Of a DNA stretch of 38,873 nucleotides, positions 1 through 38,873 are shown piece by piece. The notes beneath the pieces are model-generated. The model ran no database searches. It was not told where the DNA came from and saw only the letters and a list, made by a program, of their open reading frames with translations. Each line of letters starts with the position of its first letter. Positions within the stretch are counted from its first letter, which is position 1. Source of the stretch: a virus. Location: positions 1 to 38,873 of the IMG/VR virus record IMGVR_UViG_3300002138_000031; one strand, written 5' to 3'. A program made the position numbers and the translations under genes.

Positions 1-71
1 CTTAACCAACCTATCCAAGCAATAAGAAATTGGTTTAGAATATTGGCACAAGGTGGGCATCTAATTATTTG
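1..71. repeat. Direct terminal repeat, copy 1 (circular-closure overlap)
   Basis: 1..71 (cttaaccaacctatccaagc...ctaattatttg) is identical base for base to 38803..38873. The repeat lies inside an ORF that continues in frame across the junction. Confidence 0.95.
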
Positions 72-348
72 CGTACCTCATAGAGACTTATACGAGCGTA
101 AAAAGACATTACCTAGCAAATGGAATTTAGATCATAAGTTTTTTATATTACCTGACACAGAAGAAGCCCCCGACACTAAAAGTCTAAAAGGATTAATTGA
201 AACGGCTTTAGATGGGCAGTCTTACAAGATAATCAGCATAAAGACACAAGACACATCAACCAACAAAGATAAGCCAGAGGAACATGGTAATGGCGAATAT
301 CAAATAGAGGCAATAATCTACAAACCTAAAAAGAGAGGTAAAAAATAA
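1..348 (+). CDS. Class I SAM-dependent methyltransferase, 3' part (gene starts at 38569 and wraps the junction)
   Basis: Frame 1 is open from base 1 (LNQPIQAIRNWFRILAQGGHLIICVP...) and continues the ORF from ATG 38569 in frame. The joined product is 193 aa, with motif I VIDIGVG and a LAQGGHLII post-motif. Confidence 0.8.
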   Translation, partial: LNQPIQAIRNWFRILAQGGHLIICVPHRDLYERKKTLPSKWNLDHKFFILPDTEEAPDTKSLKGLIETALDGQSYKIISIKTQDTSTNKDKPEEHGNGEYQIEAIIYKPKKRGKK

Positions 349-3547: not shown

Positions 3548-4067
3548 TAAAATATTTGCGGTTACTACTGAATGGGCTAATGAACGCATATTTCAGGCTA
3601 GAGAACTATTAAAAAGGTCTGGAATACATGAAGCACAACAATTACCCGCATCTATTCACTATGATTCTGAGTTAAGCCCACAAACTATAATCTTTTCTTT
3701 TTATGCTGCTGATTACTATATTTATGTTGATCAGGGTGTAGAGGGGTTAGGTCCTAATAAGAAACCCACAACGGGTAAATTTAAGTTTAAAACACTTTCA
3801 GTATCTAAGGGCATGGCTGCTAGTATTCAAGATTGGATAGCCAGAAAACCTATTTTAATTAGACAAGATAAAAAAGAATCGAGTAAGTCTAGTGTAATTC
3901 CTAGAGCGGTAAGTGTAAGTTATGCAATAGCAAAGACAATCAAAAAGACTGGTATAGGTAAAACATTATTTTGGTCAAATACATTTAATGAAAAGAGTTA
4001 TAAAGAATTAGGTAAAAGATTGGAAAAGTCTTTAGGTGAAGCATATAGAATAGAAATTAAGTTATGA
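3528..4067 (+). CDS. Hypothetical structural-module protein (179 aa)
   Basis: GTG start overlapping the previous ORF end, and ATGA overlap with the next gene. I recognised no motif. Confidence 0.55.
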   Translation: MNQTISDKIFAVTTEWANERIFQARELLKRSGIHEAQQLPASIHYDSELSPQTIIFSFYAADYYIYVDQGVEGLGPNKKPTTGKFKFKTLSVSKGMAASIQDWIARKPILIRQDKKESSKSSVIPRAVSVSYAIAKTIKKTGIGKTLFWSNTFNEKSYKELGKRLEKSLGEAYRIEIKL

Positions 4068-5308
4068 GTTTAACAATAGAGCAAAGCGCAGAAGATTTTG
4101 CCCCCGTATTTAATCCGATGGACTTTATTGTTTCATCAGATAATCTAATAGGCAATACTTTCTTTTTCTACTTAGTGAAAGTACAAGATGACAACGGAGA
4201 TACTATTAGCCAACATAGATACCTACCACGTCCAGACAATTCGTTATTAAAGTTTGATGCCTCAAGGATTTTAGAAAAATATACTTCTTATGATATTAGC
4301 GGTATTCAATCTGGTACTACTGGTTTTAGGCGCACTTCTAATGTTTACAAAGAATATAGATTACAATTTGTAGAGGAAACGGGTAGTGTAGCGAGTGCGG
4401 TTACTAGTGGGGCTACCACATCAACATCTTACAAATATGCTTTTAATGGTGCGTTAGATGATGTTATAGATTATGATTCTGATTTATGGGTTATATCTGA
4501 TTCTACTTTATTACCTTCATTGCAGCAACAAAGATTCTTAACCGATCAAAGAGGCGCAAACATTAGAATAAAAACCACTGAAAGTTTTGAGTTAGGAATG
4601 ATGACAACCGCAGGGAGTGGGCAAGGCGTTAAAAAAATAGTTGTAAAAACTTATGATATATCTAATAGTTTACTTGGCACTTATGAAATAACAAACGCTT
4701 ATGCAAGTGGGGTTACAACGCCTGATTTATTTTTAAGTTGTTTAGTTGGTCCAGTTGATTTGAATAGTACTACTTTGTCTAGTGGTAGCCAACCGATCAT
4801 AACTTCTTCAGTCGACAAATACACTGTATATACACAAAGTAATGCAGGTGATATTACAAGTGAAACATTAACTTTTAAAATAGATACAAGTTGTAACTCA
4901 GGCATAAGAATACACTACCTTAACCGATTAGGGCGTATAGATTCATTTACTTTTAACTTTGCTAATGATAGCAGTTTAGAAGTAACCAAGTCAGCATTTA
5001 GAAAATTGTCAGGGTCATTCAGTGGATCCACATTTGCGAGAACAAGATATGAAAGCGAAAGTACTAATTTCTTTACTCAAGTTGATAAAAAGATTAAAGT
5101 AAGAACAGATTATATAAGCGACACAGAAGCGGAGTGGTTACAATATATGGTTAGCAGTCCTATACATTGGGGTATTATTGATGGGGAGTTAGTTAATTTA
5201 GTTTTAGATACTAAAAGCTATAATGTTCAAACCGCTGAAAAAAATAAAATATTCTTTATTGAATGTGATTTTACCTTTAGTAAATCAATATACAGACAAA
5301 GACTATGA
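4064..5308 (+). CDS. Virion structural protein (414 aa), possibly distal tail or baseplate
   Basis: Long Ser/Thr-rich ORF coupled by ATGA overlaps to both neighbours in the block that precedes the tape-measure-like gene. Function is inferred from context only. Confidence 0.4.
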   Translation: MSLTIEQSAEDFAPVFNPMDFIVSSDNLIGNTFFFYLVKVQDDNGDTISQHRYLPRPDNSLLKFDASRILEKYTSYDISGIQSGTTGFRRTSNVYKEYRLQFVEETGSVASAVTSGATTSTSYKYAFNGALDDVIDYDSDLWVISDSTLLPSLQQQRFLTDQRGANIRIKTTESFELGMMTTAGSGQGVKKIVVKTYDISNSLLGTYEITNAYASGVTTPDLFLSCLVGPVDLNSTTLSSGSQPIITSSVDKYTVYTQSNAGDITSETLTFKIDTSCNSGIRIHYLNRLGRIDSFTFNFANDSSLEVTKSAFRKLSGSFSGSTFARTRYESESTNFFTQVDKKIKVRTDYISDTEAEWLQYMVSSPIHWGIIDGELVNLVLDTKSYNVQTAEKNKIFFIECDFTFSKSIYRQRL

Positions 5309-7986: not shown

Positions 7987-7991
7987 ATAAC

Positions 7992-9851
7992 ATGGCAGAG
8001 AATGTAGAATTAGAAATAAAGGTAAAAGGTAGTGATTCGGTGCAAAACGCATCTGATAAATTAAAATCTGCTAAAACCCAATTAAGAGAGCTTAAAGACC
8101 TTTTAGCTAGTGGCACATTAGGTGGCCAAGAGTTTGAAAAGGTAGCAGCACAAGCAGGTGCATTAGAAGATAAGATAGGTGATGTAAACAAAAAAGTAAA
8201 AAACCTTTCAAGTGATACGGGTTTATTAGATGGCTTTACATCCGTCACTCAAGGTATAATAGGTGGATTTACGGCTGCTCAAGGTGCTATGGCTTTATTT
8301 GGGGATGAGAATAAAGACCTACAAAAACAATTAGTAAAAGTACAAGGGGCGGTAGCTTTGTTAAATGGATTCCAGGCGGTTGCCAATACCTTAAATAAGG
8401 ATAGTGCTGCAATGACCTTGTTACAATCTACAAGGTTAAAAGTATTAACTGCCATTCAAACACGCTACACATTAGTAGTTCAAGGCACAACGGGCGCAAT
8501 GAAAGCCCTAAGAATAGCAGGTGCGGCATTAGGTATAGGGTTAATAATTGCAGCAATAGCATTATTGATATCTAATTTTGATAAGATAAAGAAAGCAGTA
8601 TTAAATTTCTTACCATCATTAGAAACACTTAAAAACACTTTCTATGCCGTTAAAAATGCAATTACAGACTTCTTAGGCATAACTAGTGATGCCACACGAG
8701 AGTATGACAAATTAGAAAAGGCAACTGAAAAATACATAACCAAAGCAGAAGAAGAAATAGAGGTTATGAAGATAAGAGGGGAAACTGCATATAAAATATG
8801 GGTAGCTGAAAGAGAATTAATAAATAGAAAATTACAATTACTTCAAGCGTCATTGAAGGCGCATGGTGATTTAACTGATGAGGAATTAAAACAAGCGGAG
8901 GATCTACAAAGAGAAAAAAGGATATTAAATGAGACTTACTTTGCAAGTCAAGAGAAAGAAGCTGATAAAAATAATAAAGCTCAACAAGATAAAGCTAAAA
9001 AGAATAGTGAAGATAGAAAGAAACAAGCTGAACTAGATAAAGCTAATGCATTAACTGCTTCTAAAGAGTCTTTAAAAATAGCTGAAGATAGAGAAAATAT
9101 ATTAGGTACTTTAACACTTGATAGACAAAGATTTTATTTACAAGAAAAATTAAGATTAGGTATTTTATCACAAGATGAATACACTAATGCAATGTTATTA
9201 TCTGCTAAAACAGAAAGTGATTTAGAAGCTGAAAATAATCAAAAATCATTTGATGACTTATTTGCATCATTAGATGCTGAAGCTACATTAGAACAAGAAT
9301 ATAAAGATAAACAAAAGGCTATTGATGAGAAAGAAAGATTAGATAAAATCAATAATGAAAAGGCAGCCTATGAGCAAAGAGTGGCTATTGCTACCGATGG
9401 GTTAAATGCTTTATCTTCTTTAACCACTGCTTTTGCGAGTAAATCAGAGCAAGGGCAAAGACGGGCGTTTGCAATAAATAAAGCCTTAAATATAAGTACC
9501 GCAATTATTGACACCTATATGGCAGCGCAAAAAGCCTATACAAGTCAATTAAGCATACCTACTCCTGATGCACCTATAAGGGCGCAAGTGGCAGCAGGTG
9601 TAGCAATAGCAGGAGGTTTGGCAAGGGTAGCAGCGATTAGTAAAACCGAGTTTGGTAGTGGTAATGTGTCTAATGTAGGTGGCGGTTCGTTTAGTAATCA
9701 AGCCCCAAGAATACAAGGTTTCACAACTAACAATACACCACAACGTCAAACAGGGCAAAATGGTAACTTCAAAGTATATGTTACTGAAACAGATATAAGA
9801 AACGCAGGCAATAAAGTTGGTAGCATATATCAACAAGCTATGGTAGAGTAA
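7992..9851 (+). CDS. Tape measure protein (putative)
   Basis: 619 aa with Gly/Ala-rich hydrophobic segments (GIIGGFTAAQGAMALFG, LRIAGAALGIGLIIAAIALLISNF), a long K/E-rich coiled-coil middle, and a C-terminal AAGVAIAGGLARVAAIS. Confidence 0.65.
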   Translation: MAENVELEIKVKGSDSVQNASDKLKSAKTQLRELKDLLASGTLGGQEFEKVAAQAGALEDKIGDVNKKVKNLSSDTGLLDGFTSVTQGIIGGFTAAQGAMALFGDENKDLQKQLVKVQGAVALLNGFQAVANTLNKDSAAMTLLQSTRLKVLTAIQTRYTLVVQGTTGAMKALRIAGAALGIGLIIAAIALLISNFDKIKKAVLNFLPSLETLKNTFYAVKNAITDFLGITSDATREYDKLEKATEKYITKAEEEIEVMKIRGETAYKIWVAERELINRKLQLLQASLKAHGDLTDEELKQAEDLQREKRILNETYFASQEKEADKNNKAQQDKAKKNSEDRKKQAELDKANALTASKESLKIAEDRENILGTLTLDRQRFYLQEKLRLGILSQDEYTNAMLLSAKTESDLEAENNQKSFDDLFASLDAEATLEQEYKDKQKAIDEKERLDKINNEKAAYEQRVAIATDGLNALSSLTTAFASKSEQGQRRAFAINKALNISTAIIDTYMAAQKAYTSQLSIPTPDAPIRAQVAAGVAIAGGLARVAAISKTEFGSGNVSNVGGGSFSNQAPRIQGFTTNNTPQRQTGQNGNFKVYVTETDIRNAGNKVGSIYQQAMVE

Positions 9852-11116: not shown

Positions 11117-12058
11117 ATGAAATTAAAATTTGGATATGACGTGTCAGATTTGACCGCTTATGTCAATGAGGAAAAATTGCCGTTGTTAATGGCATCTGTA
11201 TTTAGTGGTGAATCTGCTGATTTCTTTGAATGGCAGCAAGGCATTAAGTATAAAGAAAAACTTAACTATATGGATATTGATATCCTTATGAGAGCCGACA
11301 CTGGATGTTCTACTTTTACAAGTTCGGGTGATACCACCTTTACTCAGAAAGAAATTTCAGTAGATAGCGCAATCCATGAAACTGCCCATTGCCCTGCTGA
11401 TTTAGAAGATTACTGGGCTAGAATTGGTCTACAAAAAGGATCTTATCAAGATGCTCTACCATTTGAACAAGAGTGGACTGGTTACTACAATGAGAAAGTA
11501 AAAGCAGTTGTAGAAACTCAAATTTGGCAAGGTAACAAATCAACTGGCTCAGGTAACTTAGCTTTAGTTAATGGATTTATCAAAGCTATTGACGATGACA
11601 CTGCAACAGTAGACGCAACCGCACAAGCAAGTATATCTACTACTACCATTATCGGTATATTGGATGACATGGTATCTAAATTACCAGCAGGTGTACAAGG
11701 TGCTGATGACTTGGTTTTCTGTATGGGTTGGGATACTTTCAGAATCTTATTGCAAAAATTGAGAGATTTGAACTACTTCCATATCAATGGTGCTGAGACT
11801 TCACCTTATACAAGTGGTGAATATATGTTAGATACTTGGGGTGTTAAAATCAAAGCCTTTAGAGGTTTGACAGGAACTAACCGTATCTTCTTGAGCCGTC
11901 AATCTAACTTTATAATCGGTACTGACTTACAAGGCGATTACGAGGCATATGATTTGTGGTACGAAAAGAAAGATGATAAAATTTTAACCCGTTTGAAATA
12001 CAAATTAGGTACTCAAATTAAATTTGGTGCTGAAATGGTTCAATACTCTAATTCTTAA
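11117..12058 (+). CDS. Major capsid protein (HK97-fold-like)
   Basis: 313 aa following the protease/scaffold gene. Capsid-like motifs include VETQIWQGN, LVNGFIKAI and FCMGWDTFRIL. A terminator follows one gene downstream. Confidence 0.75.
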   Translation: MKLKFGYDVSDLTAYVNEEKLPLLMASVFSGESADFFEWQQGIKYKEKLNYMDIDILMRADTGCSTFTSSGDTTFTQKEISVDSAIHETAHCPADLEDYWARIGLQKGSYQDALPFEQEWTGYYNEKVKAVVETQIWQGNKSTGSGNLALVNGFIKAIDDDTATVDATAQASISTTTIIGILDDMVSKLPAGVQGADDLVFCMGWDTFRILLQKLRDLNYFHINGAETSPYTSGEYMLDTWGVKIKAFRGLTGTNRIFLSRQSNFIIGTDLQGDYEAYDLWYEKKDDKILTRLKYKLGTQIKFGAEMVQYSNS

Positions 12059-12582: not shown

Positions 12583-12605
12583 TGTGTTTTCATAGTTTAT
12601 CTTCG

Positions 12606-12640
12606 AGGGGGTTGGTGGTCAAATACCACCCCCTTTATTT
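12606..12640 (+). terminator. Intrinsic terminator after the capsid/tube pair
   Basis: AGGGGG-tt-GGTGG / CCACC-CCCTTT hairpin (5 bp, a 2-nt bulge, then 6 bp including wobbles) with a 7-nt loop and a T-rich tail ending at the next ATG (12641). Confidence 0.7.
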
Positions 12641-13039
12641 ATGATAATATTAGAACCAAATACCGAGAACATTTTAGTTTTGTCATTATCTGAAAAGGTA
12701 ACGATACAAAACCCTATTTATCTATTTAGGTTTGTTTCAAAAGAATCTAAAGTAGAGTATGTGTGTATTAGCGCAGCGATTGACGATTATAGTTATGGTA
12801 GACAATCGTTTGAAGTAACAACCGTAACAAGTGGCGCAACTGCCTTAAATGGTGAAGTAGCCTTAATATATGGCGATGAGTATAATTATTACATATACGC
12901 CCAAACAAGTACAACGAATTTAGACTATACATTGAGCGATGAACTAATCCAAGAAGGATTGGCTAAGTTTAATAAACCGATAACAACACGAACAAATTAT
13001 GAGCGAGAACCTACAACCAGAAAAGTCTACCAAAGATAA
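12641..13039 (+). CDS. Hypothetical structural-module protein (132 aa)
   Basis: ORF between the terminator and the portal gene. I recognised no motif. Confidence 0.5.
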   Translation: MIILEPNTENILVLSLSEKVTIQNPIYLFRFVSKESKVEYVCISAAIDDYSYGRQSFEVTTVTSGATALNGEVALIYGDEYNYYIYAQTSTTNLDYTLSDELIQEGLAKFNKPITTRTNYEREPTTRKVYQR

Positions 13040-14807
13040 ATATGTCTTTGGGGCGTTCCCATTATATGAGCATAAAACACCTGAGTTCAGGGAAAAAAGT
13101 GGCTATGTGTATGTTCAATATGGGGATGATAATGCTTACCCTGATTACCTTGTATATCTTTATAACCGTTCTGCAATTCATAACGCAATAGTAAACGGCA
13201 AAGCAAGATTTATAAATGGTTTAGGGTGGCAGGTATCTGATGGCATGGTAGATGGTAACTTGACTAACTTTATGTCAAGGGTAAACCCATCTGATGACTT
13301 AAACGAATTAACACAAAAAGCCATTTTAGATAGGTTAATCTTTGGAGGTTATGCTTTAAGAGTGTTATGGATGGGCGGCAAAATAGTAAATATATATCAC
13401 CAACCTTTTCAAACTATAAGAACCGACGCTGAGCAAACTACATTTTATATCTCTAAGCAATGGACCAAAGAACAAAGCACTAAGGCTAAGTTTAAGGCAT
13501 CAAAGAAAATGCCAGAAGATGTAAGAGCAATAGCCCCATTTGATCCAAATACAAGAAACGGGGAACAATTACTATACATTGCAGATTACAGACCGCAAAT
13601 CAAAGTTTATCCATTACCTGAATACTTACCTGCCAACGCAGGAATAGAAACAGATATAGAAATAGACAACTTTCATTTGAATAATATTAAATCGGGGTTT
13701 GCAGCAGGTAATATGATAGTGATGTATAATGGTAAACCTGCACCCGAAGAAATGAGAAAAGTAGAACAAGATTTAAAAGATAAGTTCTATGGTACTGATA
13801 ACGGAGGGGAAGGGATATTATACTTTGCTGAACTAAATGAGACACCCCCTTTAATTGTTCCAATGAGGTCTAATGAATTAGATAAACAATATGAGCAGTT
13901 AAGTAAATCAACTATTGAAAAGATATTTATAGGTCATAACGTAACAAGCCCTCAATTATTTGGGTTAAAGCCTGAAAGTGGATTGACAGACGGATGGTCT
14001 AATATGGATATAGCCTGGCAGTTGATGAACATAAACTATGTAGAGCCACGCAGAAGGCAAATAGAAAGCGATTTTAACTACATATTAAAGTTTGCAGGGT
14101 TTGATAAAAGGATTGAATTAAAACCATTACAAAGATTAAAAACTCCTATAAGTGAATCTATGTTAATGGCTAATCTAACAAGAGCAGAATTAAGACAATT
14201 AATAGATAGTAGTTTAGATATTGACTTAGCAGTCGAGCCTACTACTCAAATGGCTAAAAATGATTTAGGCAATTTTGAAAGTATATTGATAAATAGATTA
14301 TCTCAAATTGGCATAAGTGCTGATGGGTTAGAGTTTGCGGATATCAATATAGGTGAAGATGAAAAAAAGGTCCTTAATTATATTAAAGGCAAAAAAACTA
14401 TTGATATTAAAAAGGCTACCAAAGATTTAGGTATTGATGTAGCCAAAATAATGAAACGGCTAATTGAAAACAATGTAGTAGTAGGGGCGACTCAAGCAAG
14501 TGGTAATATAGACATTAAAGAAATCAACGTACCAAAAGACGAGCCAAATGTAAGTGTAGCTACTATGTGGAAGTACTCAGGACCTCAAGACGATAAGAAT
14601 AGAAGTTTTTGTGCGAAAATACTACAAATGAATCGTCTCTATACTAGAGAGGAAATAGACCAATTGAATAATGACATGAAAGAGTATAACCAAGATGTAT
14701 GGAAATATAGAGGCGGTTGGATGACCGTGCCTGATACGGATGGTTTACTTCATGTGCCTTATTGCAGACATACATGGAAACAAGTATTAGTTAAAAAAAG
14801 AAATTAA
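12999..14807 (+). CDS. Portal protein with C-terminal MuF/SPP1 gp7-like head-morphogenesis domain
   Basis: 602 aa and the only portal-sized candidate. The N-terminal part (AYPDYLVYLYNRSAIHNAIVNGKARFINGLGW) is portal-like. The C-terminus (NRSFCAKIL...YTREEIDQLNN...WKYRGGW...HVPYCRHTW) matches my memory of the MuF-like motif. Confidence 0.6.
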   Translation: MSENLQPEKSTKDKYVFGAFPLYEHKTPEFREKSGYVYVQYGDDNAYPDYLVYLYNRSAIHNAIVNGKARFINGLGWQVSDGMVDGNLTNFMSRVNPSDDLNELTQKAILDRLIFGGYALRVLWMGGKIVNIYHQPFQTIRTDAEQTTFYISKQWTKEQSTKAKFKASKKMPEDVRAIAPFDPNTRNGEQLLYIADYRPQIKVYPLPEYLPANAGIETDIEIDNFHLNNIKSGFAAGNMIVMYNGKPAPEEMRKVEQDLKDKFYGTDNGGEGILYFAELNETPPLIVPMRSNELDKQYEQLSKSTIEKIFIGHNVTSPQLFGLKPESGLTDGWSNMDIAWQLMNINYVEPRRRQIESDFNYILKFAGFDKRIELKPLQRLKTPISESMLMANLTRAELRQLIDSSLDIDLAVEPTTQMAKNDLGNFESILINRLSQIGISADGLEFADINIGEDEKKVLNYIKGKKTIDIKKATKDLGIDVAKIMKRLIENNVVVGATQASGNIDIKEINVPKDEPNVSVATMWKYSGPQDDKNRSFCAKILQMNRLYTREEIDQLNNDMKEYNQDVWKYRGGWMTVPDTDGLLHVPYCRHTWKQVLVKKRN

Positions 14808-23785: not shown

Positions 23786-23816
23786 AACCTCTACTTTAAT
23801 CGGTAGGGGTTTTTTA
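23786..23816 (+). terminator. Intrinsic terminator ending the long late transcription unit
   Basis: AACCTCTAC (23786..23794) pairs with GTAGGGGTT (23803..23811), 9 bp with one G-U and an 8-nt loop, followed by a T-run to about 23816. Confidence 0.8.
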
Positions 23817-23921
23817 TTATTAAAATATGTAAAAAAGGGCTAATTATATGTTTTTGCATACAATAATATGTATTTAGTAATCAACTATTTAAGGTTTAAT
23901 TTAAGTTATTTTTAAAATAAA

Positions 23922-26378: not shown

Positions 26379-27746
26379 ATGAACTACAAAGAATTTATAG
26401 AATCAAAAAAACACTCAATAGGTAATTTTGGATTTGATCCTAAATATATACCCGATATTGCGTTTGACTTCCAACAAGAAATTATTACAAGAGCTGTAAA
26501 AAAAGGTCGTATGGCTGTTTTTGCCGATACTGGACTAGGTAAAACATTAATACAATTAGCAATAGCTAAAAATATAATCGAAGAAACAAATAAAAAGGTC
26601 TTGATATTAACACCATTAGCAGTGGCATTCCAATTTATATTAGAAGCCAATAAACTAGGCATAGATGACATTGAATATTCTAAAGATGGTAATCACACCA
26701 AAAAAATAGTTATATGCAATTATGAGCGTTTACATTATTTCAATAGCGAAGATTTTGTCGGGGTTATTTTAGACGAAAGTTCTATATTGAAAAACTTTGA
26801 CGGCAAAATAAAAGGTCAAGTTACTGCATTTGTAAAGAAGATACCTTATAGATTTTTAAGCACTGCAACCCCAAGCCCTAATGATTTTATTGAATTAGGT
26901 ACAAGTTCAGAAGCTTTAGGGTATATGGGATATATGGATATGCTAGGTAAGTTTTTTAAGAACAATCAAAATAGCGTAGATTCAAACAATAGAAATATAG
27001 GCGAAAAGTTCTATTTAAAGCCACACGCTGAAACGGATTTTTTTGCATGGGTGAATCAATGGGCTATTATGGTAAAAATGCCTAGTGACTTAGGATTTTC
27101 AAATGAAAGATACCAGTTGCCAAATTTAATAGTGAATAAACACATTGTTAAAAATCAATCATTAATTGATATAAACGGTCAAGTGCAACTATTCACACCA
27201 ATGGCAAAGTCAATGACAGAGGTAAGGCACGAGCAAAAACAAACAGAAGAAAAAAGATGTGAAAAGGCTATCGAGTTGGCTGATGGTAAAACCTCTGTAT
27301 ATTGGTGCAACACTAACAACGAAAGTGCAATATTAAAGGCTTCTGATAAAGAAGCTGTAGAAATTATAGGCAGTCAATCAATAGATAAAAAAGAAGAAAT
27401 ACTTTTAGCGTTTGCAAATGGCGAAATTAAAAGACTTATAACTAAAGCTAAAATGACATCAATGGGGTTAAACTGGCAACATTGCAATCATTCAGTATTT
27501 TTCCCTACATGGTCATACGAGCAATATTACCAAGCAATTAGAAGGTTTTGGAGGTTTGGACAAACTAAAGACGTAACTATTGAAATGGTTTTATCCGATG
27601 GGCAAACAAGGGTAACTGAGGCTTTAGAACAAAAAACCAAAAAGGCTATTGAATTATATGAGAATTTGACAAAAAATGTCAATCAATCATTTGAAAACAA
27701 AAACAAAGAATTTAACAAACAAATAATAAAACCATCATTTATATGA
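26379..27746 (+). CDS. SNF2/DEAD-like superfamily 2 helicase
   Basis: Motif I FADTGLGKT, motif II VILDESSILKN, motif III LSTATPSPND, and a C-terminal helicase domain (TSMGLNWQHCNHSVFF ... QAIRRFWRFGQ). Confidence 0.85.
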   Translation: MNYKEFIESKKHSIGNFGFDPKYIPDIAFDFQQEIITRAVKKGRMAVFADTGLGKTLIQLAIAKNIIEETNKKVLILTPLAVAFQFILEANKLGIDDIEYSKDGNHTKKIVICNYERLHYFNSEDFVGVILDESSILKNFDGKIKGQVTAFVKKIPYRFLSTATPSPNDFIELGTSSEALGYMGYMDMLGKFFKNNQNSVDSNNRNIGEKFYLKPHAETDFFAWVNQWAIMVKMPSDLGFSNERYQLPNLIVNKHIVKNQSLIDINGQVQLFTPMAKSMTEVRHEQKQTEEKRCEKAIELADGKTSVYWCNTNNESAILKASDKEAVEIIGSQSIDKKEEILLAFANGEIKRLITKAKMTSMGLNWQHCNHSVFFPTWSYEQYYQAIRRFWRFGQTKDVTIEMVLSDGQTRVTEALEQKTKKAIELYENLTKNVNQSFENKNKEFNKQIIKPSFI

Positions 27747-28753
27747 GCCAAGTAAAAGACCAATTAATCACAGACAAGTACGCAATTTATAACGGGGATT
27801 GTATGGATGTTCTCCCAAAAATAGAGGACAATAGTATAGACCTATGTATTTATAGCCCCCCATTTGCAAACTTGTACACCTATTCAAGCTCTGAAAAAGA
27901 TTTTAGTAATGTTTCAGATACGAATGAATTTTTAACACAATTTGAATTTTTAGTAAAAGAGCTTTCAAGGGTAACAAAGTTGGGTAGAATAAATGCTTTA
28001 CACGTTACCGATATTTGCGATGTGTCTGGAACGTTATCTGACTTCCCAAATAAAATAATAGAATTGTATAAAAAAAACGGTTTTGAATATAAAAATAAGA
28101 TTACTGTCTGGAAAGAACCCTTAAAGGTAAGAATAAGAACGATGGTACAAAGTTTAATGCACAAATTTATAGTAGAAGATAGTACCAAATGTTTTACCGC
28201 AAATCCCGACTATATTCTAATTTTTAGAAAAAAAGGAGAAAATAAAGTACCAGTAACTCACCCATTCGGGTTAACCCATTATGCTGGGGAAATTCCAATT
28301 TTACCAAATATGTTAAGGGCTTACAATAATGCAAACAATACAAAATTCACTGCTGATGAAATGTGGGAATATCTTTTAAAAACAAATGAAGAAGATAAAA
28401 TAACTAAGTTAAATCATTATATTTGGCAAAGGTACGCTTCAAGTGTTTGGGATGATGTAAGAGAGGGGAATGTTATGCCATTCCATGACGCAAAAGAAGA
28501 AGATGACGAGAAACACGTCACGCCCACTCAATTAGATGTTTTAGATAGGTTAGTTGATTTATATAGCAATCCCAATGAAGTTGTATTAAGTCCATTTATG
28601 GGTGTAGGTAGTGACATTTTCAGTCCAGTTTCAATGGGTCGTAAAGCAATAGGTATAGAATTAAAAGATAGTTACTATAAACAAGCTATTTTGAATTTAA
28701 AAGAAGCTGAAAAGAGATACAAACAGAAAGTAAAACAGGAAAGTATGTTTTAA
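27743..28753 (+). CDS. Beta-class N4/N6 DNA methyltransferase (SPPF motif suggests N4-cytosine)
   Basis: An N-terminal catalytic motif IDLCIYSPPFANLYTY precedes the C-terminal AdoMet motif VVLSPFMGVGSD. This is the N6_N4_Mtase (beta) motif order. SPP[FY] rather than DPPY is typical of m4C enzymes. Confidence 0.85.
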   Translation: MSQVKDQLITDKYAIYNGDCMDVLPKIEDNSIDLCIYSPPFANLYTYSSSEKDFSNVSDTNEFLTQFEFLVKELSRVTKLGRINALHVTDICDVSGTLSDFPNKIIELYKKNGFEYKNKITVWKEPLKVRIRTMVQSLMHKFIVEDSTKCFTANPDYILIFRKKGENKVPVTHPFGLTHYAGEIPILPNMLRAYNNANNTKFTADEMWEYLLKTNEEDKITKLNHYIWQRYASSVWDDVREGNVMPFHDAKEEDDEKHVTPTQLDVLDRLVDLYSNPNEVVLSPFMGVGSDIFSPVSMGRKAIGIELKDSYYKQAILNLKEAEKRYKQKVKQESMF

Positions 28754-29050: not shown

Positions 29051-29464
29051 ATGAAGAATAGAAATTTAACACATAGCGATAATTGGGCTACTCCAAAAGA
29101 GTTGTACGATATGTTAAACACTGAGTTTAATTTTGATTTTGACCCATGCCCATTACATTCTAACTTCGATGGGTTATTAATTGAGTGGGGTAAATCTAAT
29201 TTCATTAATCCTCCTTATTCGAGATTATTGAAAGAGGCTTTTATAATAAAGGCAATCGAAGAAAGTAAAAAAGGTAAACTATGTGTAATGTTATTACCAG
29301 TCAGCACAAGTACAAAAATATTCCATGATCACATATTGCCAAATGCAAAAGAGATCCGATTCTTAAAGGGGAGAGTTAAATTTTTAGGGCTAAATACCAA
29401 AGGTGAATATGTTACAAATAAAGCACCTATGCACGATTCAATGATTATAATATTTAAAAATTAA
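29051..29464 (+). CDS. Phage Dam-type N6-adenine DNA methyltransferase
   Basis: NWATPKELYDMLNTEFNFDFDPCP at the N-terminus and the catalytic NFINPPYS (NPPY) match the small phage Dam family layout. Confidence 0.8.
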   Translation: MKNRNLTHSDNWATPKELYDMLNTEFNFDFDPCPLHSNFDGLLIEWGKSNFINPPYSRLLKEAFIIKAIEESKKGKLCVMLLPVSTSTKIFHDHILPNAKEIRFLKGRVKFLGLNTKGEYVTNKAPMHDSMIIIFKN

Positions 29465-35260: not shown

Positions 35261-35268
35261 TATATTTG
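35261..35268 (+). promoter_or_regulatory. -7 promoter box TAtaTTTG, 4 nt before the GTG start of the sigma-like gene
   Basis: tatatttgtggtGTG. Confidence 0.4.
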
Positions 35269-35272
35269 TGGT

Positions 35273-35764
35273 GTGTCAAGGTCTCAAATACTTACCGTTT
35301 ACCACCATAAGACATTTATGAGTGCCTGTAAAAATATAGGTGGGCAAGATTGGGAAGATTTAAGAAATGAGGTAGTACTAAAGATGTATGAATTATCAGA
35401 TGAAAGATACACAAACATAAAAAACCATTTGGCATTTATGATAAGAGTGGCGCAAACCACTTCTATTGATAAGGCTAAAAAACACTCAAACAAGTATGAG
35501 TGGGTATTAAATAACCCTGAGTGGTTTTGCAATATTGCAGAAGTAGTAACCGATTTTGATAATGAGACTGATATAACGGCTAAATTAAAAAAAGACATTG
35601 ACGATCCAAAAAGACTTTACCATAGTAGAATATTTGTATATTGCAACATTTACGGAAGTATTAAAGAATGTTCAAGAAAGATAGGCATACCATATAAAGA
35701 AGTTAGGACCACATACAACGATTATAAATTATATTTAAAAAATTGGTTAAAGTCGCATATATAA
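35273..35764 (+). CDS. Sigma-70 family (ECF-like) RNA polymerase sigma factor, putative
   Basis: Region 2-like WEDLRNEVVLKMYE...HLAFMIRVAQTTSIDKAKKHS and region 4-like SRIFVYCNIYGSIKECSRKIGIPYKEVRTTYNDYKLYLKNWL. Confidence 0.55.
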   Translation: MSRSQILTVYHHKTFMSACKNIGGQDWEDLRNEVVLKMYELSDERYTNIKNHLAFMIRVAQTTSIDKAKKHSNKYEWVLNNPEWFCNIAEVVTDFDNETDITAKLKKDIDDPKRLYHSRIFVYCNIYGSIKECSRKIGIPYKEVRTTYNDYKLYLKNWLKSHI

Positions 35765-36717
35765 AGAACGCAAGTCCTGGAGTTAATTACCATAGGCTTG
35801 AGGTACCTTTTGCTTTAATAGCAGAAGATGAACGGTTTAAGGTGTTTGAAGTTCAAATTGCTACGGATGAATATGACGTAATAGTATTTAATCGCATACC
35901 GTTCCAACCATTAAGCACACTTCAAAGACTTAAAAAACAAGGCATTAAAATAATATTTGATATTGACGATTACTGGATGAGACCGATATGGCATACTAAC
36001 TTTTCAAACCAATGGGAGTTAGAATTTTGTGCAGAGATAATTAAGTTTTTAAGACTTGCAGATATTGTTTGGGTGTCAACACCTTACCTTCAACAAAAGA
36101 TAGCAGAAATGCTAATAGAATCAGTTTTGATCCCTAATGCTTTGCTATATGAGGAAGCCCAATTTAATAGGGTTAATATAGAACGTGACACTATTAATTG
36201 TGGGTGGGTAGGTGGCATAGCGCACCATAGAGACATAAATTTACTTACTGAGCCGTTAAAACAACCGCACAAAGCTAAAATGGTATTGGGTGGTGTAAGT
36301 GATATTAATAATAAATATTGGCAATATATTGGGCAAGTATTAGGCGGGGGCAAAATAAAGAACGTTCAAATACTTACACACGAAAATCAATACAACTATG
36401 GGTTTATGTATAATTATTTAGACATAGTTTTACTGCCTTCTTTCAATGATACTTATACCATGTGTAAATCTAATTTAAAAATATTAGAGGCAGGGGCGCA
36501 TAATTTACCAGTTATTACTAATGGGGTTATTTATAAAGAAGTAACCGATAAAATGGGCATAAGGGTAAATGGTCAAAGGGATTGGGTTAAAGGTATTAAG
36601 AAACTAACAGAAAGTAAAAGAATGAGAACTGAGTTAGGTTTGGCACTTGGTGAATATACCAGAGAAAAGTACGACATCTTTAAGATAAACGAAAAAAGAA
36701 AACAAACGATATTATGA
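35743..36717 (+). CDS. Glycosyltransferase, GT-B (group 1-like), putative
   Basis: TTG start overlapping the sigma gene end. GWVGGIAHHRDINLL, and the C-terminal CKSNLKILEAGAHNLPVITNG resembles the GT1 nucleotide-sugar binding motif. Confidence 0.5.
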   Translation: MVKVAYIKNASPGVNYHRLEVPFALIAEDERFKVFEVQIATDEYDVIVFNRIPFQPLSTLQRLKKQGIKIIFDIDDYWMRPIWHTNFSNQWELEFCAEIIKFLRLADIVWVSTPYLQQKIAEMLIESVLIPNALLYEEAQFNRVNIERDTINCGWVGGIAHHRDINLLTEPLKQPHKAKMVLGGVSDINNKYWQYIGQVLGGGKIKNVQILTHENQYNYGFMYNYLDIVLLPSFNDTYTMCKSNLKILEAGAHNLPVITNGVIYKEVTDKMGIRVNGQRDWVKGIKKLTESKRMRTELGLALGEYTREKYDIFKINEKRKQTIL

Positions 36718-36938
36718 CACCAAAAGAAAAGGCACAGGAGCTAATAGACAAATTTAAAGGGTATGCAGATGACAGTACATCAAGTTGTATTGATAATGCT
36801 AAATATATTGCTTTATTTTGTGTAGATGAACTCATCAAGTATCTACCCTCATCAAATGGCAACCATCCAAACCTTCAAGAAAATGAATATAATAGTGAAT
36901 GGTGGGAAGAAGTCAAACAAGAAATAAGAGCGATATGA
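36714..36938 (+). CDS. Hypothetical protein (74 aa)
   Basis: Track ORF with ATGA coupling. Confidence 0.45.
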   Translation: MTPKEKAQELIDKFKGYADDSTSSCIDNAKYIALFCVDELIKYLPSSNGNHPNLQENEYNSEWWEEVKQEIRAI

Positions 36939-37150
36939 CACCTGACCAAAAAGAACGCATTAAAGAAGGTATGGAAGCCTACCTTTACTATGAGGCAAAT
37001 GGTATATCTGTATATAAAACACCTATGATAGACGCAGCACAAAAAGTAAAGAAGGAGTTAGGAATGAGTAACATTAGTGTTTGCAAAGGTTGTTTAGACG
37101 AAATCCACACATACATGGCAGAAATTTATAAAATATATGAAAATAGTTAA
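36935..37150 (+). CDS. Hypothetical protein (71 aa from ATG 36935)
   Basis: The in-frame ATG at 36935 forms an ATGA overlap with the previous stop. The track's earlier start at 36899 is less likely. Confidence 0.45.
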   Translation: MTPDQKERIKEGMEAYLYYEANGISVYKTPMIDAAQKVKKELGMSNISVCKGCLDEIHTYMAEIYKIYENS

Positions 37151-37913
37151 AGTATCACACTCAGGGAATACGGGCGATATTATTTATTCACTCCCATCGT
37201 TAAAAGAATATTGCCATCAGCATGACTGCAAAATAGAATATCTTTTAAAATTAGACCGACCTTCAAACTTTAATTTAATTAACCACCCACTAGGCGATGT
37301 TATGTTAAATGAAACAATGGCTAATATGCTTAAACCTTTATTAGAACATCAGTCTTATATTGATAGCGTAAGATTATTAGGCAAGTTTGAAAATGAGAAA
37401 GTAGACTTTGACTTAGATTCATTTAGATCCGAAAATAAAAACCTTTCAGCAGGTAACATAGCTTTATGGAATCAGATAGTATACCCACAACTTAGAGGCA
37501 AGATACATGAAATTAGCATAGATGCCACCCCAATAGAAAATGATTACATTATAATTAACAGAACAATCCGTTATAATAACCCTTTAATTGATTACACTAT
37601 ACTAGAGGGCAATGTAAAGTTTGTAGGAGTAGAAAGTGAGTTTAAGATAATGAAGGCTATTAACCCAAGTGTAGAACATTTGCAAGTTAAAGACTTTTAC
37701 GAATTGGCTAAGTATATAGCAGGGTGTAAGTTATTTGTAGGTAATCAATCAATGGCTTATTCAATAGCCGAAGGGCTAAAGGTTAAGAGAGTATTGGAGC
37801 AGTACTATGCTGCCCCTAATGTAATACCTCAAGGCGGGGATTGTTATGTGTTCCAAACGCAAAAACAATTTGACAATTTAATAAATAACTATATATTTGC
37901 ATTAGATAAATAA
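37137..37913 (+). CDS. GT9 (heptosyltransferase)-like glycosyltransferase, putative
   Basis: N-terminal VSHSGNTGDIIYSLPSLKEY and C-terminal ELAKYIAGCKLFVGNQSMAYSIAEGLKVKRV parallel the GT9 motifs (lGD.....P.l..l; l.vgnDSG..HlAaAlg.P). Confidence 0.45.
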   Translation: MKIVKVSHSGNTGDIIYSLPSLKEYCHQHDCKIEYLLKLDRPSNFNLINHPLGDVMLNETMANMLKPLLEHQSYIDSVRLLGKFENEKVDFDLDSFRSENKNLSAGNIALWNQIVYPQLRGKIHEISIDATPIENDYIIINRTIRYNNPLIDYTILEGNVKFVGVESEFKIMKAINPSVEHLQVKDFYELAKYIAGCKLFVGNQSMAYSIAEGLKVKRVLEQYYAAPNVIPQGGDCYVFQTQKQFDNLINNYIFALDK

Positions 37914-37915
37914 AT

Positions 37916-38569
37916 ATGCCACAAAACAATTATTTTAAAACAGAAGAAGGTAGTTACAAATCAGATTTATTTGGCAATCCTAGTCAAATTTATTTAGATA
38001 ACTACTGGAGTAATCCAATCCGTTCAACTATTGATGAGCAGATTTATAATGTAAAAGATAAAAACAAACTTGTTAAAAAGGAACTAACAAAGATATATCC
38101 TAAGTCTTATTTAGAGATTGGGTGCGCACCTGGTTTATTATTGGGGGAAATGAGTGAGATAGGCAAGGCAACGGGTATTGAAGTAGACCCTAGATATAAA
38201 GAACAACTTCAAAAGTATTCAAAGAGTGCTGAGTTATCGTTTGGTTTCTTCCCTGAGATTAGTAAAGATTGGGATAGTGCTAAGTTTTCTAATATAGTTG
38301 CCTTAGATGTATTTGAACACGTTGAGGATGGTAATGCCTTTTTAAAGGAGTGTAATAGACTTTTAGTTAAAGGAGGTGTATTAGTAATCCAATGCCCTAT
38401 AATCTTACAGGATGGCAAAACAGAGGCTACGATGTTTAATGAAAGGGAACATATATGGTACTATTGTATAGAACACTTAAATTATATGTTAATAGATAAC
38501 GGGTTTAAGGTAAAGAACATAGATAGGTTTATAGTAGGGCATGAACAAATAAGTGCAAAGAAAATATAA
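37916..38569 (+). CDS. Class I SAM-dependent methyltransferase
   Basis: Motif I YLEIGCAPGLL, then NIVALDVFEHVEDGNAFLKECNRLLVKGGVLVIQCP (Methyltransf_11/23-like). Confidence 0.8.
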   Translation: MPQNNYFKTEEGSYKSDLFGNPSQIYLDNYWSNPIRSTIDEQIYNVKDKNKLVKKELTKIYPKSYLEIGCAPGLLLGEMSEIGKATGIEVDPRYKEQLQKYSKSAELSFGFFPEISKDWDSAKFSNIVALDVFEHVEDGNAFLKECNRLLVKGGVLVIQCPIILQDGKTEATMFNEREHIWYYCIEHLNYMLIDNGFKVKNIDRFIVGHEQISAKKI

Positions 38570-38873
38570 TGGCAGAAACAAGTAAAGCATACGAGCGCAG
38601 AGTAAAAGAAGGATTCTTTGAAAAGTACGTTAAGGGTAAAGTAATAGACATTGGCGTGGGTAGAATAGATACACACGATGGCGCAGACCCATTGACTCCA
38701 ACTTGTGATACATGGGATAAAGACAATGGTAATGCAGAAATAATGCAAAGCGTATCAGATGAAACCTATGATACCGTTTATAATTCTCATTTATTAGAAC
38801 ACCTTAACCAACCTATCCAAGCAATAAGAAATTGGTTTAGAATATTGGCACAAGGTGGGCATCTAATTATTTG
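38569..38873 (+). CDS. Class I SAM-dependent methyltransferase, 5' part (continues at 1..348 across the circular junction)
   Basis: ATG 38569 lies in a TAATG overlap with the previous stop. My own translation: MAETSKAYERRVKEGFFEKYVKGKVIDIGVGRID...YNSHLLEHLNQPIQAIRNWFRILAQGGH. The ORF is open to the window end. Confidence 0.8.
   Translation, partial: MAETSKAYERRVKEGFFEKYVKGKVIDIGVGRIDTHDGADPLTPTCDTWDKDNGNAEIMQSVSDETYDTVYNSHLLEHLNQPIQAIRNWFRILAQGGHLII
38803..38873. repeat. Direct terminal repeat, copy 2
   Basis: Identical to 1..71. Confidence 0.95.

Follow-up and report, generated by a model that had tools for sequence, protein, structure and literature searches.

The chlorovirus PBCV-1 couples virus-encoded cytoplasmic transferases to a sugar O-methyltransferase to place a methyl-capped glycan on its major capsid protein, and its A064R protein combines a methyltransferase domain with two of rhamnosyltransferase type. 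Seroconverting temperate phages also encode their own sugar transferases and use them to alter a surface glycan; their GtrABC-type modules for O-antigen modification are integral membrane proteins. The virulent E. coli phage phi92 has a cluster of four soluble transferases (gp163–gp166, phrog_7162) between its endolysin and DNA polymerase genes. The surrounding 13 kb have no annotated methyltransferase, and no reported function for the cluster was found in the literature. Soluble glycosyltransferases and methyltransferases encoded by phages are likewise described for Actinomycetota phages, in glycosylation clusters from 2023 work summarised in PMC11600133.

The cassette described here comes from an uncultured Bacteroidota phage and was analysed in a window consisting of the whole stretch of 38,873 nucleotides. 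It resembles the PBCV-1 system, by analogy, in the coupling of transferases to methyltransferases, although PBCV-1 is a eukaryotic virus that uses other enzyme families. Its proteins, unlike those of the GtrABC-type systems, are all soluble, and no integrase was detected in the phage. Like phi92, this phage is virulent and has several adjacent soluble transferases, and gp164 is 31% identical to the first of them (P1) over 96% of P1 length, but the phi92 cluster lacks an enzyme of the type of the second (P4). As far as they are summarised in PMC11600133, the Actinomycetota clusters share with this cassette an accessory and sporadic nature, phages without lysogeny genes, and a methylated glycan as predicted product. 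They belong to another host phylum, and no sequence relationship was detected; the present cassette has a GT9-like enzyme with a CxxC partner, and attachment of its glycan to virions is a prediction.

The phage genome is circular, with its ends duplicated in the window. The last 71 bp (38803-38873) are an exact copy of bases 1-71, which leaves a true circle of 38802 bp. Naive joining of the ends breaks the last open reading frame after ~108 codons, whereas removal of the duplicate gives a gene that reads 38569..38802+1..348, as in the initial annotation, and encodes a product of 193 aa. All six coupled frames of that annotation are present on the + strand at the coordinates given there, the first starting at 35743 and the last passing the junction to end at 348. 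These genes and their neighbours are as follows:

35273..35764, + strand: sigma-like gene (context), ECF-type region-2-like protein, with its stop overlapping the P1 start
35743..36717, + strand: P1, 324 aa, TTG start, GT4-type retaining glycosyltransferase of GT-B fold
36714..36938, + strand: P2, 74 aa, small acidic protein, sporadic accessory gene
36935..37150, + strand: P3, 71 aa (more likely start), small CxxC protein, conserved partner of P4
37137..37913, + strand: P4, 258 aa, compact GT9-like GT-B glycosyltransferase
37916..38569, + strand: P5, 217 aa, class I SAM-dependent methyltransferase of small-molecule/O-methyltransferase type
38569..38873, + strand: 5' part of P6, unique sequence to 38802, motif I (VIDIGVG) at residues 25-31
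1..348, + strand: 3' part of P6, full protein 193 aa, class I SAM methyltransferase of a subfamily other than that of P5
376-465 (29 aa) and 458-625 (55 aa), + strand: two tiny overlapping frames (context) filling the gap between the cassette and terS
612-1022, + strand: terS, packaging gene, downstream context
1142-2302, + strand: terL, packaging gene, downstream context

The genes are tightly coupled. The sigma-like stop (35764) overlaps the TTG start of P1 (35743), P1 and P2 share an ATGA overlap (36714-36717), the P3 stop and P4 start overlap by 14 nt, P4 and P5 are 2 nt apart, and P5 and P6 overlap by 1 nt (TAATG). The number of database homologues (24 for P1 besides itself, 315 for P4 and 348 for P6) and a gene order kept across dozens of independent viral contigs indicate that these are real genes and not chance frames.

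The sigma-like neighbour named in the initial annotation has a homologue upstream of a P1-type gene in 19 related loci, while its family assignment is based on weak matches (NCBIfam NF040705, 1.2e-6, below cutoff; phrog_1740 sigma factor, 2.9e-3). A Bacteroidota-type -7 box (TATATTTG) is located at 35261. Downstream, the two tiny frames, the second of which overlaps the terS start at 612, mean that the cassette is not immediately beside terS. The packaging genes themselves are recognised by Pfam GP3_package (1.1e-9), Terminase_3C (1.5e-16) and Terminase_3 (2.9e-9) and by phrog_606 and phrog_2; the closest terL from an isolate, in Flavobacterium psychrophilum phages, is 58% identical. No terminator or recognisable promoter was found between the cassette and either neighbour, and with no such boundary on either side its proposed place at the head of the late operon cannot be demonstrated. 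Among the annotated frames, no integrase or repressor was found, and the phage also encodes two conventional DNA methyltransferases.

The earlier GT-B-like call for P1 is upheld, and the enzyme is of GT4 type. It matches phrog_7162 ('glycosyltransferase') at 3.2e-51 and, in profile comparisons, MshA (3c4q, 1e-4) and WbnH; its Pfam Glyco_trans_1_4 score of 20.9 bits is under the 27-bit cutoff. The best Foldseek matches of its AF2 model (pLDDT 95.8) are SPS, PglA, MshA, HepE, BshA, PimA, TarM and WaaG. The consensus of its homologues opens at the same residue as P1. The family is essentially phage-specific and common to E. coli phi92-like phages, with tblastn matches mostly in enterobacterial phages. 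A second match is present in most records that P1 matches, which would fit paralogous copies. The acceptor domain of P1 has a pI of 5.1.

The family of P4 is large (3148 representatives) and unannotated, and all 315 homologues of P4 are labelled 'hypothetical'. There is no sequence match to P4 in Pfam, PHROG, NCBIfam or PDB, including PF01075 and the NCBIfam heptosyltransferase models, and none in cultured phages. The earlier GT9-like assignment thus holds by fold only: the top nine PDB matches of the AF2 model (pLDDT 93.6, pTM 0.92) are GT9 proteins, namely 3tov, WaaC and WaaF, followed by TibC, with EarP among the weak matches. Local alignment with the GT9 (PF01075) enzymes WaaC and WaaF (hhalign E 0.07) pairs an N-terminal G-D motif, in P4 SGNxGDIIYSLP with G13-D14 invariant, and a C-terminal nucleotide-sugar-binding helix motif, conserved in P4 as GNQSxxFAIAEGLK. 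P4 differs from GT9 in being 60-90 residues shorter, in having GNQS where GT9 has (N)DSG, and in its acceptor domain, which is acidic (mean pI 5.5 in phage copies) rather than basic as in WaaC and WaaF, whose lipid A-Kdo-binding domains have a pI of ~10.

Cellular homologues of P4 occur in LPS-type loci near an MsbA-like flippase gene. An orthologous ABC transporter lies on the same strand in ~50/80 species loci, within ~250 bp in 25 and within 1.5 kb in 38, and among NCBIfam models it scores best against the MsbA lipid A flippase, with 513 bits for a cutoff of 602. Genes for GT2, GT4 and canonical GT9 enzymes, GmhA and Wzy_C are also found in these loci. Every cellular homologue has a ~58-aa basic N-terminal extension (mean +5.8) that phage copies lack. 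H50, R97 and W111 in the N-domain are invariant in both clades, which suggests a similar sugar acceptor in the two. Natural fusions join the P4 domain to the sugar O-methyltransferase TylF and to FkbM, Methyltransf_23, GT2 and RgpF, and one natural protein combines two P4-like domains with a canonical GT9 domain. In BFVD, the top viral structural match is a fusion of a P4-like domain and a methyltransferase from an uncultured phage, and P4-like folds are also found in giant viruses.

The two small frames of the initial annotation both exist but are not equivalent. P2 (pI 4.6) matches phrog_21441, of unknown function (3.3e-13), and is present in only 8/80 related loci, at variable positions. 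A P3-like frame of 50-89 aa (mostly 60-89) with a conserved C-x-x-C precedes P4 in 78 of the 80 viral loci, ending at its start or running into it. P3 itself has no family match in Pfam, PHROG or NCBIfam searches. The more likely P3 start, judged from the ATGA overlap with the P2 stop, is the ATG at 36935, giving 71 aa; the mechanically called frame from 36899 has 83 aa. P3 has no homology to the N-terminal extension that cellular relatives of P4 carry.

P5 and P6, both reported as class I SAM methyltransferases, score above the Pfam Methyltransf_23 cutoff of 27 bits (P5 6.4e-15, 55.7 bits; P6 2.4e-9, 37.5 bits). P5 also matches Methyltransf_11 (4.8e-10), a UbiG-like profile (4.8e-9) and PDB 3cc8 (7e-8). 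Identity between the two is limited to 23% over 48 aa. The P6 homologues are 52-85% identical to it and come mainly from phage-sized contigs, and an unrelated DnaB/SSB phage likewise carries a P6-like gene paired with a homologue of P4.

Related uncultured phages commonly carry the cassette, as an exchangeable accessory island just upstream of the terminase genes. A methyltransferase from one of three non-orthologous subfamilies lies immediately 3' of P4 in 60/73 loci; the gene directly after P4 is P5-like in 21 of the 73 and P6-like in 23. P1-type and P4 genes occur on the same strand in 54 of the 65 loci with room for both. Only 4/29 loci with related terminases and enough upstream sequence have P4, so virion assembly does not require the cassette. 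Highly divergent terminases (~40% identity) accompany it as well. In sister phages (terL ~65% identical) the same slot holds a GT4, a GT2 and a PLOD-type transferase domain (PF25342, 6e-22), and one of them also has a rhamnosyl-O-methyltransferase-like gene. The PF25342 family is named after a protein (collagen hydroxylysine) glycosyltransferase. In other relatives, Mom and ParB-like genes occupy the same boundary between early and packaging modules.

The product of the cassette is most likely a short methylated sugar chain. This had been proposed earlier, and the nearly constant adjacency of P4 and methyltransferases, together with the P4 fusions to TylF, FkbM and Methyltransf_23, strengthens the proposal. 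We infer that P1 would place the first sugar from a host nucleotide-sugar, P4 with P3 would add a further sugar, and P5 and P6 would O-methylate the glycan. Assembly would occur in the cytoplasm on a soluble acceptor rather than on a membrane lipid, with structural proteins of the phage itself, one or several, as the most likely acceptor. Sequence alone does not decide the target, as the initial annotation already stated, and we prefer a soluble acceptor, probably one of the virion proteins, only tentatively. No hydrophobic segment was found in the six cassette proteins (maximum KD19 1.5), which with the missing basic extension of phage P4 and the acidic acceptor domains favours a soluble acceptor that is neither lipid nor DNA; the charge argument is indirect. 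The PLOD-type domain in sister phages and the match of P4 to TibC, a cytoplasmic protein heptosyltransferase, hint at a protein target. Several points count against a virion target: the structural proteins show no obvious glycosylation tract (no collagen-like repeats or Ser/Thr-rich tails), the cassette is sporadic and dispensable for assembly of the virion, recognition of a virion acceptor would need to tolerate structural proteins as divergent as the accompanying terminases, and we know of no report of virion glycosylation for phages of Bacteroidota.

The only informative cellular context of P4 is of LPS type, beside msbA, and P4 may simply keep that job. P4, as a descendant of a host LPS-type transferase, and P1 would then add a methylated sugar branch or cap, at the inner membrane face, to the host's lipid A-core or some other lipid-linked glycan, and the altered surface could block superinfection or adsorption of progeny to infected cells and debris. 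The residues shared by the phage and cellular clades fit such remodelling, as do WaaG, PglA, PimA and WbnH among P1 relatives and the P4 fusions to GT2 and RgpF, which place the family in polysaccharide synthesis; the swapping of transferases and methyltransferases resembles diversification of O-antigen loci. We nevertheless rank it second and consider it rather unlikely. The loss of the basic extension and the acidic acceptor domains are unlike WaaC and WaaF, and the non-membrane cassette proteins come with no Gtr-like flippase or bactoprenol transferase that could be found. A host-specific acceptor in the envelope is also disfavoured by the P1 family, which is essentially confined to phages and has members in E. 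coli phages, whose hosts have unrelated LPS. During a purely lytic cycle, new LPS forms a small share of the outer membrane. Lysogenic conversion is disfavoured by the missing integrase and repressor and by a phage-type cassette in only 1 of the 80 best genome loci, a 5-kb MAG contig; it was not seen in prophages.

A different soluble acceptor, either a host cytoplasmic protein modified for takeover or anti-defence or a free methylated oligosaccharide or glycoside, seems unlikely. It would suit the soluble, acidic components, the GT4 relatives of P1 that act on small soluble acceptors (MshA, BshA, sucrose-phosphate synthase, TreT and GlgM) or make mycobacterial methylmannose polysaccharide (its mannosyltransferase), and a module boundary where relatives hold takeover or anti-defence genes. 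EarP, which glycosylates an EF-P arginine, points the same way, but this match and the small-molecule GT4 matches reflect generic GT-B similarity, no specific candidate can be named, and diversified tailoring enzymes would suit a glycan exposed at a surface more than a metabolite inside the cell. Phage DNA, another target suggested initially, is now very improbable. Sugars on modified bases could evade restriction as in T-even phages, T4 glucosylates its DNA with GT-B enzymes, and both the neighbouring packaging genes and the Mom gene in the same slot of relatives are compatible with this. However, no dCMP/dUMP hydroxymethylase or thymidylate-synthase-like gene occurs among the frames of at least 200 aa, all of which were scanned; the phage already has its conventional DNA methyltransferases, P5 and P6 are of UbiG/Methyltransf_23 type rather than DNA methyltransferases, acidic acceptor domains are unfavourable for DNA binding, and P4-family fusions and contexts are all polysaccharide-related.

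With glycosylation of a virion protein as the tentatively preferred reading, the partnerships of P4, the replacement of genes within the slot, and the P4-domain fusions suggest a module that makes a variable methylated glycan. Exchange of the second transferase and the methyltransferases between related phages would diversify the structure of that glycan.

The window (38,873 bp, 33% G+C) is the closed, circular assembly of a phage genome of 38,802 bp, as its ends share an exact 71-bp direct repeat (1-71 and 38803-38873). The repeat is an assembly overlap, and the genome is circular or circularly permuted. Naive joining of the ends interrupts P6, as it does any junction-crossing ORF unless one repeat copy is removed; once the duplicate is taken out, P6 is a protein of 193 aa ending at 348. 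The plus strand carries nearly all sizeable ORFs. The initial annotation had described six coupled genes between a sigma-like gene and the terminase genes, and an ORF check found all six in place and translationally coupled, with overlaps or 2-nt spacing at the junctions inspected. The terminase genes terS and terL follow the cassette, as identified with Pfam and PHROGs.

35273-35764, sigma-like gene, upstream of P1
35743-36717, + strand, P1, GT4-type glycosyltransferase (324 aa)
36714-36938, + strand, P2, small protein from a PHROG of unknown function
36935-37150, + strand, P3, CxxC mini-protein
37137-37913, + strand, P4, GT9-like fold (258 aa)
37916-38569, + strand, P5, class I SAM methyltransferase
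38569-38802 continuing through 1-348, + strand, P6, class I SAM methyltransferase
376-465 and 458-625, two mini-ORFs between P6 and terS
612-1022, terS
1142-2302, terL

The sigma-like stop (35764) overlaps the TTG start of P1 (35743), an ATGA overlap joins P1 and P2, the P3 stop and P4 start overlap by 14 nt, P4 and P5 are spaced by 2 nt, and P5 and P6 overlap by 1 nt. The start of P3 is probably the ATG at 36935, in an ATGA overlap with the P2 stop, giving a protein of 71 aa. The terS–terL gap (1023-1141) is a 119-bp A-rich noncoding stretch, an uncommon arrangement for two genes that usually lie coupled.

The enzyme assignments proposed for P1, P4, P5, and P6 held up, that of P4 at the level of the fold. 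Both P5 (Methyltransf_23, 55.7 bits; Methyltransf_11, 40.4 bits) and P6 (37.5 and 32.8 bits) exceed the Pfam cutoffs for the two models. With the glycine-rich motif I, which reads LEIGCAPG in P5 and VIDIGVG in P6, this places them among the Rossmann-type class I SAM methyltransferases. The nearest named models are UbiG-type O-methyltransferases, which match well below their cutoffs, and the two proteins are only about 23% identical to each other over 48 residues.

P1, called GT-B-like at the outset, matches the PHROG family phrog_7162, "glycosyltransferase" (3e-51), and falls just under the 27-bit cutoff of Pfam Glyco_trans_1_4 (PF13692) at 20.9 bits. Precomputed PF13692 and/or PF00534 matches exist for eleven homologues, and a profile built from P1 homologues matches the GT4 enzymes MshA (1.2e-4) and WbnH; the P1 sequence itself found nothing significant in the PDB. 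The AlphaFold (AF2) model (pLDDT 95.8) has a GT-B fold closest to the retaining GT4 enzymes, with Foldseek matches to sucrose-phosphate synthase (SPS) 6kih (5e-13), PglA, MshA, HepE, BshA, PimA, TarM, and WaaG at TMq 0.6-0.72. Of the E-x7-E motif expected in the C-terminal domain, only the second Glu is there, and it is invariant (E249, in K-S-N-L-K-x-L-E-A-G); the first position is Cys241. Among cultured phages, the closest relatives of P1 belong to phi92-like E. coli phages and are of the gp164 type, with 31% identity. About 140 enterobacterial phage records related to phi92 have a P1 homologue, as phi92 itself does, and in phi92 four consecutive predicted glycosyltransferases, gp163-gp166, lie together (4704-7880 of the fetched locus). 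A literature search returned no established function for the phi92 transferase cluster or for flavophage glycosyltransferases.

P4 has no match in Pfam, PHROGs, NCBIfam, or PDB sequences; PF01075 does not match even at E<=1, nor does any NCBIfam heptosyltransferase model. A profile of its homologues retrieves only chance-level matches from the PDB and no GT9 chain, and hhalign of the family against E. coli WaaC and WaaF gives a nonsignificant E of 0.07. All 315 homologues are annotated "hypothetical." The structural prediction, made from a 34-sequence alignment (AF2, pLDDT 93.6, pTM 0.92), is a GT-B fold of two Rossmann domains nearest the heptosyltransferases. The first nine Foldseek PDB ranks are all GT9 (E 9e-8 to 4e-6; TMq 0.50-0.64), among them a Veillonella protein (3tov), WaaC (6dfe, 2gt1, 2h1h, 2h1f), and WaaF (1psw), and the next is the protein heptosyltransferase TibC. 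The "GT9-like" label therefore stands for the fold, while sequence membership in PF01075, which no search at the curated threshold or below it recovered, does not. GT9 enzymes have a conserved N-terminal Gly-Asp, the catalytic base in WaaC, and a C-terminal D(S/T)G donor-binding motif. P4 has an invariant G13-D14 across the 34 sequences, in a motif similar to "RYGDILNILP" in the canonical GT9 part of P0295, a protein that fuses P4-like domains to such a GT9. Its C-terminal GNQS aligns locally with the "NDSGLMH" of WaaF, in the segment where this motif is expected, and Gln replaces the Asp of the (N)DSG found in GT9. The PF01075 match of P0295 was considered as a sequence bridge between the P4 family and GT9 and was rejected, as the match falls in another domain. 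Among viral structures, the top match is a P4-like protein fused to a methyltransferase, from an uncultured phage; giant-virus transferases come next. A tblastn search with P4 found no match in cultured phages, which leaves no isolate to compare, and the DNA of the region had no similarity match among 50,697 phage records.

A scan of IMG/VR with the P4 alignment confirmed 474 contigs, and the best 80 were analyzed; the cassette is widely distributed in uncultured Bacteroidota phages. Among these 80 loci, an ORF of 50-89 aa (mostly 60-89) with a conserved CxxC motif ends at or overlaps the start of P4 in 78, so P3, which has no family match of its own, is a conserved partner and not filler. The idea that P3 corresponds to the N-terminal extension of cellular P4 homologues was rejected on comparison. 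A class I methyltransferase is the gene directly after P4 in 60 of 73 loci from the same set, and it comes from three subfamilies: P6-like (23), P5-like (21), and a third Methyltransf_23 type (16). Of the 65 loci with enough flank, 54 have a P1-type transferase on the strand of P4; in the closest clade this gene stands upstream of P4, in others 0.8-3.7 kb downstream. Terminase genes are downstream of the cassette wherever they fall inside the fetched flank. The P6–P4 pair also occurs in an unrelated phage of the DnaB/SSB type.

Anchored on terL, the view is different: among 29 loci with 5 kb or more of upstream sequence, P4 occurs in only 4, and each of these has a terL at least 72% identical. 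Sister phages with terL about 65% identical lack P4, and the same slot is filled by another set. Besides a sigma-like gene and a P1-type GT4, it comprises a small Cys-motif protein and a GT2, together with a PLOD-type transferase domain (PF25342, 6e-22). This second flavor was located in three sister loci.

L195, 1714-5598, second island flavor of a sister phage
L178, 2554-6614, second island flavor of a sister phage
L185, 1375-6215, second island flavor of a sister phage

One of them, L178, adds a gene like Methyltransf_24 or rhamnosyl-O-methyltransferase. With different gene sets in the same slot of related phages, the position before terS is a modular, exchangeable glycosylation island. A hidden Markov model of the P3 family gives only weak matches in these P4-less loci (E 1e-4 to 1e-6), for which no CxxC conservation is claimed. 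In another P4 clade (L062, 6752-8695; also L076 and L053), the third methyltransferase type, a ParB-like gene, and a Mom-family DNA-modification gene (PF25680, 3.6e-45) stand between P4 and the P1-type transferase; the slot before the terminase gathers several sorts of accessory genes.

The P4 family extends well beyond phages. An exhaustive profile search gathered 3148 representatives, and when one genome per species was scanned, 309 species proved to have a relative. The best 80 cellular loci come mainly from Sphingobacteriales, Chitinophagales, Cytophagales, and Chlorobi; the genome loci are L086-L164, and examples are as follows.

L003, 7385-10945, cellular locus of the P4 family
L168, 6930-12441, cellular locus of the P4 family

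At the N terminus, every cellular copy is extended by a basic stretch of about 58 aa, with a mean net charge of +5.8, that all phage copies lack. On the strand of the P4 homologue, about 50 of the 80 loci also encode an orthologous ABC transporter (60-69% identical); the distance is no more than about 250 bp in 25 loci and no more than 1.5 kb in 38. Among NCBIfam models, this transporter matches the lipid A flippase MsbA best, at 513 bits against a cutoff of 602. A Pedobacter locus has Wzy_C, several GT2s, a GT11, and FkbM near the homologue, and a Ferruginibacter locus has a canonical GT9, a GT4, GmhA, and LptC. Multidomain members are fused to TylF, FkbM, Methyltransf_23, GT2, or RgpF, or carry a canonical GT9 as a separate domain. 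The cellular branch, "hypothetical" in all annotations and without a Pfam model, is probably an uncharacterized LPS-related glycosyltransferase encoded beside msbA.

Elsewhere in the phage genome, genes were identified for a tape-measure protein, portal, endolysin, helicase, replication initiator, DnaC-like loader, HNH endonuclease, and two DNA methyltransferases. The last two lie in the replication module (27743-28753 and 29051-29464; phrog_67, 2e-34, and phrog_111, 2e-36) and probably supply conventional anti-restriction methylation. Lytic Flavobacterium psychrophilum phages have a large terminase 58% identical to the one in the window, and the scanned ORFs gave no match to an integrase or repressor. 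The order of the structural genes is unusual, with the tape-measure-like gene (7992-9851) and proteins of 414 and 893 aa, for which no family match was found, upstream of protease- and capsid-like genes and the portal.

4064-9851, structural module stretch
12999-14807, portal

Bacteroidota-type -7 boxes (TAnnTTTG) number 47 on the plus strand against roughly 20 expected from base composition, by a rough estimate. They are concentrated in intergenic gaps (2309, 22737, 22766, 23918, 23946, 29490, 32219, and 35261), and the one at 35261 immediately precedes the sigma-like gene. Clear structures of a hairpin plus a T run lie at 12,583-12,640 and about 23,790; going through the junction from about 26.4 kb to 12.6 kb there are no terminator-like hairpins. 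The arrangement is compatible with a single transcription unit of the sigma-like gene, cassette, and terminase genes, and is no evidence of timing; the place at the head of the late operon that was given to the cassette at the outset is putative. The early region probably starts at the pair of boxes at 23918 and 23946, behind the strong terminator-like hairpin near 23,790. The hairpin at 12583-12640 is strong and G+C rich, is followed by a T run (GAGGGGGTTGGTGG...CCACCCCCTTTATTT), and comes directly after a 172-aa ORF behind the putative capsid gene, where an attenuating terminator may follow the highly expressed head genes. Scans for sigma-70-type promoters and for terminators stayed at background level and are uninformative for a Bacteroidota phage.

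The suggestion that the cassette makes a methylated glycan is well supported as sugar transfer followed by sugar methylation, because P4-methyltransferase fusions of the Rosetta stone kind and the adjacency statistics agree. The P5 and P6 substrate would be a sugar hydroxyl, judging from the adjacency of P4 and methyltransferase genes and from the P4 fusions to TylF, FkbM, and Methyltransf_23. Well-studied phage glycosylation comprises DNA modification in the T-even phages, lysogenic O-antigen conversion, and, recently, mycobacteriophage virions. Phage DNA is a very improbable target here. T-even glucosylation combines a pyrimidine hydroxymethylase with a DNA alpha- or beta-glucosyltransferase, whereas no ORF of at least 200 aa in the window resembles a hydroxymethylase or thymidylate synthase, and T4 AGT and BGT are absent from the top 50 structural matches of P1 and P4. 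Conventional DNA methyltransferases are also already present in the genome, P5 and P6 are of the small-molecule type, and the contexts of P4 are all polysaccharide related.

Host LPS or another lipid-linked glycan has more in its favor: the ancestry of P4 lies beside msbA, and residues of its N-terminal domain are conserved between phage and cellular clades. This target is nonetheless unlikely, as the basic extension has been lost from phage copies and the acceptor domains are acidic (mean pI 5.5 for phage P4 and 5.1 for P1), in contrast to the lipid A-Kdo-binding domains of WaaC and WaaF at pI about 10. GT9 heptosyltransferases take ADP-heptose as donor and lipid A-Kdo or core as acceptor; for the P4 family, GmhA lies in the context of one cellular genome, and the acidic acceptor domain of phage P4 argues against an anionic lipid acceptor. 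Gtr seroconversion modules consist of a membrane flippase, a bactoprenol transferase, and a serotype-specific transferase in a temperate phage. The cassette differs from them, because none of its six proteins has a hydrophobic segment and no integrase is found among the scanned ORFs. The absence of a membrane protein among the cassette products and of lysogeny genes among the scanned ORFs both weigh against an envelope target. The phage-type cassette appeared in just 1 of the 80 best genome matches, a 5-kb MAG contig, so these phages are not seen as prophages, and members of the P1 family also occur in E. coli phages, which infect hosts with unrelated LPS.

A soluble protein as acceptor, in the simplest case virion proteins, is favored, if tentatively and at rather less than an even chance, because of the PLOD-type transferase in the sister island, the existence of a GT9-fold protein glycosyltransferase in TibC, and the mycobacteriophage precedent. 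According to PMC11600133, an O-methyltransferase and glycosyltransferases carry out modification of the capsid and of the tail tube of mycobacteriophages. The window shares with those systems that genes for glycosyltransferases and O-methyltransferases are adjacent and that the phage shows no lysogeny functions among the scanned ORFs; there the glycan is attached covalently to capsid and/or tail proteins, and here such attachment is putative. The structural proteins showed no notable collagen-like repeats or Ser/Thr-rich tracts when scanned for them. An added glycosylation tail was sought by comparing the putative major capsid protein (11117-12058) with Flavobacterium phages that lack the cassette, and the protein has no homologue in any isolate or cultured phage. 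Some other soluble molecule as acceptor is improbable.

A fuller picture built on the virion reading is speculative and, taken whole, unlikely. A host-LPS GT9-like enzyme, stripped of its membrane-binding extension and given a new CxxC adaptor, would place an O-methyl-capped glycan on structural proteins, and swapping of the methyltransferase and second transferase would diversify that glycan. Such a virion-decorating island, spread over at least 474 IMG/VR contigs, would be the first in phages that infect Gram-negative (Bacteroidota) hosts.

Phage glycosylation cassettes are already known, and what is new here is the unannotated GT9-like family, the conserved CxxC partner, and the modular swapping of tailoring enzymes. 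The enzymes differ from those of known systems in combining a GT9-like family of thousands of members, a phage-specific GT4, interchangeable sugar-type methyltransferases, and a CxxC mini-protein, in abundant uncultured environmental phages of Bacteroidota. The cellular P4 branch merits definition as a family whatever the phage target is. If LPS is remodeled, surface conversion would be carried out by phages in which no lysogeny genes were seen and which were not found as prophages here. If virions are decorated, glycan coats on phage particles would not be limited to mycobacteriophages, and such a coat would be a factor in stability, attachment to particles or mucus, and evasion of recognition.
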